In this document: piece by piece, positions 17,133-19,384 of the stretch
Position numbering within the stretch: the stretch's first letter is position 1
Layout of the letters: the number at the start of each line of letters is the position of its first letter
From: a virus
Lineage: Duplodnaviria; Heunggongvirae; Uroviricota; Caudoviricetes
IMG/VR virus record: IMGVR_UViG_2850761752_000006
Direction: 5' to 3' (one strand)
Length of the DNA stretch: 22,991 bases
Translations under genes and position numbers: made by a program
The notes under the pieces: generated by a model
What the model was told of the DNA's origin: nothing
Databases searched by the model: none
Seen by the model: the letters and a program-made list of their open reading frames with translations, nothing else

Positions 17133-17224
17133 GCAAGCACCTTAAAATCACCATCATACACTAAATCAGTAAGTTGGCAGCATTACCCTGCAACCGCTAT
17201 GAAAAAGGCGGGAAAGATGGCATC

Positions 17225-19384
17225 ACAATGACATTTATCGGCCCTTCCCCCTCTGTTCAGGACAAATCAGCCAGCACTGATAATACCAACATCAACGGCG
17301 AAGACATGACTGAGATTGAGGAGAGCATGCTTCTACCTGTCTCCGGTCAGGAACTGCCCATTCGTTGGCTTGCTCAACACGGCAGCGAAAAACCAGTAAC
17401 GCACGTTTCACGCGACGAACTCCAGGCATTACACATTGCACGGGCTGAAGAACTACCGGCTGTTACTGCCCTGGCTATTTCGCATAAAACCAGTCTGCTC
17501 GACTCGCTGGAGATTCGCGACCTCCACAAACTGGTTCGTGACACTGACAAAGTTTTCCCTAATCCTGGTAATTCAGACCTGGGACTAATAACTGCTTTTT
17601 TCGAAGCATACTTGGACGCTGACTACACTGTTCGGGGCCTGCTGACAAAAGAGTGGATGAAAGGAAATCGTGTTTCACGCATCACCCGCACGGCTTCCGG
17701 TGCTAATGCTGGTGGTGGGAACAAAACCGATCGCAATCCGAATTTAGTACACACCCTCGACACACTGGATGTGGAGATTGCAGCAGCCACACTTCCGATG
17801 GATTTTAATATTTATGAAATTCCGGGCAGCGTTTATCGTCGCGCAAAAGAAGTAGTCCTGAAAAAAGAAAGTCCGTTCAAAGAATGGTCCGCAGCACTTC
17901 GTGCACCCCCGGGTATTCTGGACTATTCCCGCGCCGCTATTTTTGCACTTATCCGAAGCGCACACCCTGAATTTTATCACTACCCGGGACGCCTTCAGGG
18001 GTATATCAACGCCTATTTGACGGAAACTGATCACGAGAACCCCAGCAAGGAAACTCTCACAGCTACCCGGCATACGCCGGAAAAAGATATCCTGGAAGAA
18101 ATTAACCGCGAGGTGGTTACTGAGCGTGAAACAGAAGAAGAAAAACCACAACCATCTGACGCAATGGCAGGTGAACAGGCAACAACTGAAACAATGGAAC
18201 CGGATACAACTGAACATTGCCAGAACGCGCAGTCGCTGGATGCTCAGTCGCAGGTGAGTTCCGCTAACCAAGTAAAAGTCACCGCTGACGAAGTAAACAA
18301 AATTATGCAGGCAGCCAATATCAGCCAGCCTGACGCCGATAAGTTACTTGCTGTATCGCGTGGTGAATTTGTTGAGGGGATTAGCGACCCTAATGATCCG
18401 AAATGGGTCAAGGGGATCCAGACTCGCGATTCTGTGAACCAGAACCAGCATGAATCGGAACGGAACGACCAAAAAGCGGAACAAAACAGCCCAAATGCGT
18501 TACAAAACGAGCCAGAAACGAAACAATCCGAACCAGTAGCGCAACAGGAACCGGAAAAAGTCTGCACCGCCTGCGGTCAGAGCGGTGGCGGCAACTACCC
18601 TGATTGTGGCGCGGTGATGGACGACGCAACATACCAGAAAACATTCGATGAAGAGAATCAGGTTGAAGTTCAGGAAAATGATCCGGAGGAAATGGAAGGC
18701 GCTGAACATCCACACAAGGAGAATGCTGGCAGCGCTCAGGACCACGCCAGCGATAGTAAAACTGGCGAGACGGCAGATCCCTTAATTACGGTGAATGGTC
18801 ATCACGAAATCACATCCACCAGCAGGACGTGTGACCATCTAATGATCGACCTTGAAACCATGGGAAAAAATCCTGATGCCCCGATCATCTCAATAGGTGC
18901 AATATTTTTCGATCCGCAAACCGGAGATATGGGACCCGAATTTAGTAAGACTATCGATCTGGAAACTGCTGGCGGAGTCATTGATCGGGACACCATTAAA
19001 TGGTGGCTTAAGCAATCACGCGAAGCGCAATCTGCCATTATGACCGATGAAATCCCGTTAGATGATGCACTGTTACAATTGCGGGAATTTATCGACGAAA
19101 ACTCCGGTGAATTTTTTGTTCAGGTCTGGGGAAATGGAGCCAACTTCGACAACACGATTTTGCGCCGTTCATACGAACGGCAGGGGATCCCCTGCCCGTG
19201 GCGTTACTACAACGATCGCGATGTACGCACAATCGTTGAGCTGGGGAAAGCCATAGACTTCGATGCCAGAACGGCTATTCCATTCGAAGGTGAGCGCCAT
19301 AATGCACTTGATGACGCTCGTTACCAGGCAAAATACGTTTCAGCTATCTGGCAAAAACTGATCCCGAGTCAGGCTGATTTTTAA
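17225..19384 (+). CDS. RecE-like exonuclease gene, 5'-truncated by IS1; C-terminal DnaQ-like (DEDDh) 3'-5' exonuclease domain
   Basis: ORF 17174..19384(+) begins inside IS1; first native ATG at 17225. Segment [41 protein letters not shown] matches my memory of the RecE N-terminal region. C-terminus has the motifs [14 protein letters not shown] and [10 protein letters not shown]. May be a non-functional remnant. Confidence 0.6.

Follow-up and report, generated by a model that had tools for sequence, protein, structure and literature searches.

An IS1-truncated prophage gene from a widespread family that joins a RecE-type N-terminal region to a DEDDh exonuclease domain at loci without a RecT-family gene

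The window analysed here, a stretch of 22,991 nucleotides from a tailed-phage record (IMG/VR IMGVR_UViG_2850761752_000006), carries the remnant of an exonuclease gene that adjoins an IS1 element. A first-pass annotation, made from the letters and their open reading frames (ORFs), had placed the gene-derived sequence at 17188-19384 and described it as a RecE-like N-terminal region fused to a DEDDh (DnaQ-like) 3'-5' exonuclease domain instead of the PD-(D/E)XK fold of RecE, with an acidic, low-complexity middle that contains a CTACG...C...DCG segment. It had further proposed that the 5' end was lost to IS1, that no RecT gene follows, excisionase and integrase coming next, and that the gene is an exonuclease chimera in the exo position of the early-left operon. 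All of this was borne out by the results below, which go beyond that reading in showing that the chimera is not rare and that the copy in the window is a pseudogene lacking a promoter. The parts of the remnant are as follows, with amino acids (aa) numbered as in the intact protein:

17188 to 19384, + strand: remnant of the gene for the RecE-N::DEDDh exonuclease, codons 83-813 and stop, with no start codon and no promoter
17300 to 18097, + strand: second folded helical domain of the RecE-type N-terminal region (aa 120-385), holding the D230V change at 17630
18128 to 18547, + strand: acidic low-complexity linker (aa 396-535), mostly predicted to be disordered and still homologous to RecE by BLASTP
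18563 to 18607, + strand: CxxC-x7-CxxC zinc-ribbon-like motif (C541, C544, C552, C555; codons checked), broken by C552Y
18836 to 19351, + strand: DEDDh 3'-5' exonuclease domain (PF16473, DexA/Rv2179c type), recognized by Pfam, by a sequence match in the PDB and by Foldseek

The ORF that contains the remnant (17174-19384, + strand, 736 aa) has its first five codons within the end of IS1, which occupies 16420-17187 and abuts codon 83; the gene-derived letters begin at 17188 and the first whole codon, at 17189, corresponds to Cys83. The ORF shares 99% identity with aa 83-813 of WP_001544673.1, the intact protein of 813 aa, which is encoded at 8372-10813 of locus L001. The window matches L001 up to position 6819 of the latter and resumes at 8617, about 1.8 kb (L001 6820-8616) having been replaced by IS1. 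Lost with this segment are ydfA from codon 7 on, ydfB, ydfC, dicB, ydfD and, from the exonuclease gene, 82 codons at its start. The same presumably holds for dicF, since phage Tritos has it annotated at the corresponding position. No promoter-like site was found on the + strand upstream of the remnant. A hybrid IS1-gene product initiated at the TTG at 17174 was considered and rejected, given the lack of a + strand promoter-like site and of an obvious ribosome-binding site. Because it has neither start codon nor promoter, the window copy is a pseudogene, disrupted by an insertion sequence (IS), of which intact orthologues exist elsewhere.

An identical truncated gene is found in IMG/VR locus L047, without the IS629 insertion that the window has further downstream. 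L019 carries the intact gene closest to the window copy, and the two differ at three positions, all of them nonsynonymous. Of these, T775A arose in L019, as the other intact copies share Ala with the window. The two changes specific to the truncated copy are D230V, in the conserved helical domain, and C552Y (18596, now TAC), with zero synonymous changes. Small as these numbers are, the pattern fits relaxed constraint after inactivation.

The N-terminal end of the truncated copy is matched by PF06630 (Exonuc_VIII; Pfam, E=4.5e-26), and BLASTP aligns aa 58-616 of the intact protein with residues 50-592 of Escherichia coli K-12 RecE at 59% identity over 566 aa, with no similarity to K-12 RecE past residue 592. 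Identity of the module to other RecE alleles reaches 93-95%. The RecE equivalog model of NCBIfam (NF007259) is matched only at model positions 83-603 of 877, scoring 792.7 bits against a cut-off of 1269. The AlphaFold2 model of the intact protein has confident domains at aa 1-100 and 120-385, and the predicted local distance difference test score (pLDDT) lies below 50 at aa 396-447, 490-535 and 562-626, in agreement with the acidic and largely disordered middle. A short helical segment (aa 448-472, with predicted helices at 448-457 and 462-472) lies inside the linker. The cysteine-containing segment constitutes a Cys4 motif that is also present in K-12 RecE, is conserved in 62 of 66 intact homologues, and is modelled by AlphaFold2 as a small zinc-ribbon-like element at about aa 540-560; its third Cys has become Tyr in the window. 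Foldseek with the full model returned matches to the DEDDh domain only and none to the N-terminal module, and no structural relative was found for the model of the N-terminal helical core. The function of the RecE N-terminal region is given as unknown in a review (PMC11611040).

The C-terminal domain is of a different kind. PF16473 matches the ORF at its aa 555-726 with E=5.6e-68 and 228.6 bits (cut-off 27), over profile positions 2-177 of 177, and DLET, NFD and HNALDDA correspond to motifs ExoI, ExoII and ExoIII of DEDDh enzymes. All five catalytic codons were checked (D559 at 18848, E561 at 18854, D659 at 19148, H709 at 19298 and D714 at 19313, in ORF numbering), and the residues align with the invariant ones of T4 DexA and of stand-alone homologues. 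The PDDEXK family PF12684, which Pfam matches at residues 615-850 of K-12 RecE, has no match in the window protein, and tblastn with RecE 601-866 found none in the window. AlphaFold2 predicts a confident C-terminal domain at aa 630-810 of the intact protein (pLDDT about 90), for which Foldseek against the PDB ranks T4 DexA first (8KEL, E=8e-9), followed by RNase T, oligoribonuclease (Orn), REXO2 and ERI. The template modelling scores (TM-scores) of the top matches are 0.6-0.74 on the target, with no PD-(D/E)XK protein among the matches, and a sequence search of the PDB returned only T4 DexA (8KEL, E=1.8e-6). Profile search and structure prediction, proposed at first reading as checks of the C-terminal domain, thus both give DEDDh and not PD-(D/E)XK. 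Judged by profile, catalytic residues and predicted fold, the protein is a DEDDh exonuclease of family PF16473, and the matches behind the observation, with E-values from 1e-26 to 1e-238, are beyond chance. Enzymes of the DEDDh superfamily hydrolyse nucleic acids by a two-metal mechanism, proceeding 3' to 5' from a free 3'-OH; Rv2179c acts on RNA, as the Pfam family description also states.

The junction between the two modules is sharp. The DNA of L001 is 94.9% identical to that of a recE-recT locus (L079) from 27 nucleotides upstream of the ATG to nucleotide 1844 (codon ~615), and beyond this point there is no similarity. By this abrupt loss of identity the N-terminal module is a discrete mosaic unit. 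Uneven synonymous divergence (dS) among the modules also points this way, e.g. a dS of 0.01 for domains 1-2 versus 0.53 for the DEDDh domain. The point of the swap falls where the nuclease domain starts.

To relate module composition to the presence of an annealase gene, 80 IMG/VR loci with relatives and five annotated loci were scored by tblastn with four probes (N-terminal module, DEDDh domain, RecE nuclease domain and RecT), with the following outcome:

N-terminal module with DEDDh domain, 73 loci: RecT-family gene in 0/73
N-terminal module (93-95% identical) with RecE nuclease domain, 4 loci: recT in 4/4
N-terminal module with a different PDDEXK (PF12684) nuclease, L080 and apparently L087: RecT-family gene shown for L080

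In the last architecture the N-terminal module is 92-95% identical (L080 7001-11207, and also L087). The PDDEXK nuclease domain of L080 is frameshifted and is followed by a gene for a 350-aa RecT-family protein (PF03837, E=3.5e-43) that is unrelated to K-12 recT at the BLAST level. With none of the 73 fusion loci and all PD-(D/E)XK controls shown having a RecT-family gene, it follows that the annealase gene is tied to the PD-(D/E)XK nuclease rather than to the N-terminal module.

Known annealase families were also sought in the wider neighbourhood of the fusion gene. All ORFs reaching 130 aa within 5.5 kb upstream and 4 kb downstream were grouped into 93 clusters and scanned with Pfam; no RecT, ERF or Rad52-type family occurs among the first 25 listed of the 79 matched families, nor did any turn up when + strand neighbour ORFs of at least about 170 aa were scanned singly. 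The Pfam matches are to repressors, integrases, replication proteins, YdaT, Rha/Ash and IS transposases. A PHROG scan of the unassigned neighbour ORFs gave unknown families only and no annealase family. The only sizeable unassigned early-left gene, and hence the only candidate for an unrecognized partner, encodes a 216-aa phrog_2151 protein and lies between repressor and exonuclease gene in nine loci (L048 5111-5758, + strand, and eight others); small uncharacterized phage proteins (phrog_1363 and others) show similarity to its N-terminus. In complete functional phages, e.g. Tritos, no annealase gene is found from about 4.6 kb upstream to 6 kb downstream of the gene, and no RecT-like sequence is detected by tblastn anywhere in the window. 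The first-pass expectation that intact homologues would not be routinely paired with recT was thus confirmed.

Although the window copy is defective, the gene family to which it belongs is common and conserved. Of 5426 complete E. coli genomes, 4053 (75%) carry DNA that encodes the DEDDh domain, in up to seven copies each, and by tblastn 1289 phage records contain relatives of it, T-even dexA included. Among 70 complete fusion genes 66 are intact, and the catalytic residues are kept in all. In well-diverged comparisons the DEDDh domain has a ratio of nonsynonymous to synonymous divergence (dN/dS) of 0.10-0.17, and the N-terminal domains and linker have ratios of 0.10-0.38. Judging from these ratios, the fusion family is under purifying selection and functional even though the window copy is not. 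The possibility that the family is a decaying relic was rejected in view of the 66/70 intact genes and the dN/dS values of 0.1-0.4.

When the N-terminal 614 aa were used as query in a word-indexed protein search, near-identical E. coli entries filled the results and left nothing to be learnt about diversity. An exhaustive search with the same query against 1.84 billion cluster representatives (E <=1e-3) yielded 265 representatives, 79 of them at least 450 aa long. The DEDDh domain was detected in 15 of these long proteins, a RecE-type nuclease in 20, a RecT fusion in one, and neither nuclease nor RecT in 43; Pfam on 57 long members agrees, with PF12684 in 19 and PF16473 in 11. The 43 proteins of the last group (e.g. 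P0283, P0294, P0298, P0299, P0310, P0317, P0323, P0346, P0384 and P0387) have 200-400 C-terminal residues without a detectable DEDDh, RecE-nuclease or Pfam domain, which could represent further effector modules or else truncated or mis-called genes. In the single RecT fusion (P0244, 703 aa), the RecE N-terminal region (aa 50-528) is joined to the C-terminal part of RecT (aa 516-703) with no nuclease domain; this is either a recE-recT deletion fusion or an artefact of assembly or annotation.

In another cluster (P0069/P0075) there are many E. coli entries 140-183 aa long that bear the name "3'-5' exoribonuclease"; at more than 70% identity to the DEDDh domain, they fall into the same 90%-identity clusters as partial entries and a 606-aa "exonuclease". 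Many "stand-alone" E. coli forms (e.g. those of 177-183 aa) may be fragments of frameshifted fusion genes, a point that bears on published surveys of "bacterial DexA homologues".

The fusion is common in databases, where it is generically annotated. PHROG 2082/20376 are called "exonuclease", PGAP uses "exonuclease", "3'-5' exonuclease", "RecE family exodeoxyribonuclease" and often "3'-5' exoribonuclease", and many phage records carry the misnomer "exodeoxyribonuclease VIII". No paper on the RecE-N/DEDDh fusion or its missing annealase was found in the open-access literature.

Around the remnant, the window contains the following features of the prophage and its mobile elements:

15684 to 16103, + strand: ORF for a cI/DicA-like helix-turn-helix repressor, collinear with L001 6083-6502 ("helix-turn-helix domain-containing protein"); start of the early-left region
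16401 to 16419, + strand: ydfA remnant of 6 codons (MDTIDL), the sole leftover of the ydfA-ydfB-ydfC-dicF-dicB-ydfD block
16420 to 17187, - strand: IS1 of 768 bp with insA/insB ORFs and terminal inverted repeats GGTAATGACTCCAAC... / ...GTTGGCAGCATTACC, identified by blastn
19443 to 19646, + strand: DUF4224 excisionase-like ORF, directly 3' of the exonuclease remnant; the homologous coding sequence of L001 is annotated DUF4224
19646 to 21984, + strand: tyrosine integrase in two pieces (19646-19945 and 21256-21984), from ORFs and collinearity with L001 and L047
19946 to 21255: IS629-like element of 1310 bp that splits the integrase, with a 3-bp AGG target duplication; ends read in the sequence
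22013 to 22101, - strand: tRNA-Ser(CGA), the attachment-site tRNA of the prophage (ARAGORN), followed by mtfA; L001 and L002 are arranged alike

No annealase gene lies between the exonuclease remnant and the DUF4224 ORF. A second IS1 copy (11731-12498) is 99.9% identical to the one that truncates the exonuclease gene, and an IS3-family element with orfA and an rve-domain orfB is found at 8079-9235. At 1636-3462 (+ strand), in a low-GC stretch (~37-42%) adjoining phage tail-fibre genes, lies a gene for an IpaH-type effector of 608 aa with LRR_TTSS and NEL E3 ligase domains (E=2.5e-75). This cargo gene suggests that the window comes from a Shigella-type genome in which a decayed prophage carries ipaH. 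The setting as a whole is a heavily decayed, IS-rich, Shigella-type lambdoid prophage at the serU/mtfA site.

The window has lost most of the operon to which the gene belongs, but the order is preserved in other prophages and in phages vB_EcoS-689R5, Tritos and PPompW, namely repressor (cI)-ydfA/B/C-dicF-dicB-ydfD-exonuclease-excisionase-integrase. In the early-left operon of functional phages the fusion gene is thus the last before xis-int, i.e. in the exo position; the equivalent order in the Rac prophage is kilR-ydaE-racC-recE-recT-ralR-rcbA-xisR-intR. This position suggests expression after prophage induction and not in the lysogen, and therefore favours a role in the lytic cycle (DNA-end processing or degrading, or anti-defence) over classical prophage defence.

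The gene in the window is an inactivated copy of a widespread early-left gene of lambdoid (Qin/DicB-type) prophages. We consider it probable, if by no means certain, that the product of the intact gene acts as a stand-alone 3'-5' end-processing or end-degrading nuclease and not as a recombinase. The first module of the intact protein (aa 1-~615) is a RecE-type region consisting of two folded domains, acidic disordered linkers and the Cys4 zinc-ribbon-like motif. The second (aa ~630-813) is a DEDDh exonuclease of the DnaQ fold, joined exactly where the PD-(D/E)XK nuclease of RecE would begin. In intact phages the gene would be read from the early-left promoter as part of an operon in which it follows dicB-ydfD and precedes xis-int; the metal-dependent exonuclease would then take nucleotides off free 3' ends, with the RecE-type module bringing it to its target. 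In the window copy, IS1 has taken the promoter-proximal part of the operon together with the start codon and 82 codons, and the changes D230V and C552Y have accumulated. The substrate is probably DNA: of the characterized relatives, the DNA exonuclease T4 DexA is nearest in sequence as well as in structure, and the module joined to the nuclease derives from an enzyme of DNA ends. The protein is not expected to form part of an exonuclease-annealase recombinase, because its presumed polarity is opposite to that of RecE and no annealase accompanies it; a 3'-5' polarity would remove, not create, the 3' single strands used by RecT-type proteins.

Several points weigh against this reading. We infer enzymatic polarity and substrate, and with them the biological role, only from family membership, and the identity of T4 DexA to the fusion domain is only 28%. 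RNA is a possible substrate, as the Pfam family is named after the exoribonuclease Rv2179c. Targeting by the N-terminal module, which is without a structural relative, is a conjecture. There may also be an unrecognized annealase (e.g. the phrog_2151 protein), or one encoded elsewhere in the phage or in another prophage, the survey having spanned about 4-5.5 kb on each side and known families. Moreover, the 80 IMG/VR loci are mostly close E. coli relatives and do not represent independent samples.

A more far-reaching proposal, which we advance only tentatively, is that the RecE N-terminal region is an autonomous, exchangeable "delivery" module found on different nuclease cassettes, and that its DEDDh version is a weapon in phage-phage or phage-host conflict and not a recombinase. 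Three such cassettes were seen: RecT accompanies a PD-(D/E)XK 5'-3' nuclease, a further RecT-family gene accompanies a second PDDEXK nuclease, and the DEDDh 3'-5' nuclease has no annealase. Targets of the weapon would be, e.g., defence nucleic acids with 3' ends or DNA from competitor phages. If this is true, the existence of 95%-identical modules on nucleases of opposite polarity provides a natural system for finding the binding target of the RecE N-terminal region.

Somewhat less likely still, in our estimate, is that the protein is a defence or superinfection-exclusion nuclease expressed by the prophage, its DEDDh domain degrading incoming phage nucleic acid (modified DNA or the 3' ends of RNA phages). 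The gene is extremely prevalent and conserved, many defective prophages included, and its neighbour dicB is reported to protect against some phages (Ragunathan & Vanderpool 2019). The operon, however, is early-left and under repressor control, so that expression in the lysogen is not expected. The domain is of the DexA family, and a plasmid-borne E. coli homologue of DexA was found to protect against T4 and to degrade DNA containing 5-hydroxymethylcytosine (PMC12153337). Yet the features associated with the specificity of that type of enzyme (EcD) are not those of the fusion domain, which keeps the Asp equivalent to DexA D90, has Tyr instead of W152 and is without the D169 loop. Prophage-encoded DEDDh proteins with variable auxiliary domains, named TONDO, defend against MS2 and Qbeta, but the TONDO candidates were picked with human ISG20 as query from hits of less than 500 aa (PMC13344964). 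PADLOC has no defence-system model that matches the fusion protein.

It also seems improbable that the nuclease is an accessory of recombination or repair, e.g. one that trims 3' flaps or tails, for which an annealase or recombinase is provided in trans by RecA/RecFOR or by the RecT/Bet of a co-resident prophage; the "missing" recT would then not be a functional difference. The exo position in the operon is compatible with such a role, as is the N-terminal module, which is up to 95% identical to that of genuine recE-recT loci. Full-length RecE is also relevant here, since its N-terminal part makes linear-linear recombination more efficient (Fu et al. 2012, as cited in PMC11611040). E. coli genomes often hold several lambdoid prophages, and as many as 7 copies of the domain occur in one genome. 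On the other hand, a 3'-5' polarity would destroy the very 3' single strands that annealases of the RecT/Bet type need, the annealase travels with the PD-(D/E)XK nuclease and was seen at none of the fusion loci, and phages of the Tritos type have no annealase in the interval given above.

Finally, a 3'-5' exoribonuclease like Rv2179c, directed against host or phage transcripts, small RNAs (such as the co-transcribed DicF) or RNA parts of host defences, is very unlikely: the name of the Pfam family and the frequent PGAP label point to RNA, and the structural neighbours after DexA are RNases, but enzymes of the RNase T/Orn type cut DNA too, so that neighbours in fold do not decide the substrate, and both the closest characterized relative and the origin of the partner module speak for DNA.

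RecE/RecT is a workhorse of recombineering, although no function is known for the first 600 residues of RecE. That the same module is found under purifying selection on a nuclease of presumably opposite polarity, without an annealase, argues for a role independent of exonuclease-annealase recombination. Mosaic swapping among lambdoid phages will hardly surprise specialists, but the strict coupling of nuclease and annealase, together with the occurrence of 95%-identical N-terminal modules on nucleases of presumably opposite polarity, makes the question of the RecE N-terminal region more tractable. Many proteins labelled "exodeoxyribonuclease VIII / RecE family" are mis-named, and this abundant, uncharacterized prophage nuclease could matter for phage recombination, defence and anti-defence.

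Among known systems, RecE of the Rac prophage (K-12) resembles the fusion in its ~600 N-terminal residues, in its acidic linkers and Cys4 motif, and in the place of its gene in a lambdoid early-left operon upstream of xis-int. It differs in having a PD-(D/E)XK 5'-3' nuclease (RecE 564/606-866; PF12684) where the fusion has a DEDDh domain, and in being followed by recT. As it scores under the cut-off, has no PD-(D/E)XK domain and is not accompanied by recT, the fusion protein is, as far as its sequence tells, not a RecE. Exonuclease-annealase recombinases (RecET, lambda Red) have an adjacent RecT/Bet/Erf/Rad52-like gene, which the fusion loci do not.

The enzymes described as EcD/"HREX" (PMC12153337) and "TONDO" (PMC13344964) are, like the fusion protein, DEDDh exonucleases of enterobacterial genomes or prophages. 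TONDOs, by their description, also combine a nuclease with variable auxiliary domains as the fusion does. The comparison with EcD rests on the hallmark residues published in PMC12153337: in HREX/EcD the equivalent of DexA D90 is lost and W152 and D169 are kept, whereas the fusion keeps the Asp, has Tyr and has the D169 loop deleted. EcD (HAK9828821.1) was not found among the stand-alone homologues by cluster membership.

T4 DexA (8KEL/8KEN), which like its E. coli homologue EcD has DNA exonuclease activity (PMC12153337), has the five catalytic residues and the predicted fold in common with the fusion domain (TM-score 0.64-0.72 on the target). Apart from the low sequence identity, the fusion domain differs from it in lacking the extra loops of DexA, including the D169 region, and in the Tyr that replaces W152. 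DexA is a stand-alone protein of 227 aa from a virulent phage, while the fusion protein has a 615-aa N-terminal module and belongs to temperate phages. Closer to the fusion domain, at 55-60% identity, are stand-alone DnaQ-like exonucleases such as gene 34 of phage LLS and the 189-aa Salmonella/E. coli proteins P0115 and P0109, which have no RecE-type N-terminal module and keep the Trp equivalent to DexA W152. The homologue in phage LLS (56% identity) occupies the same position as the fusion gene, the last before xis-int at the early-left end.

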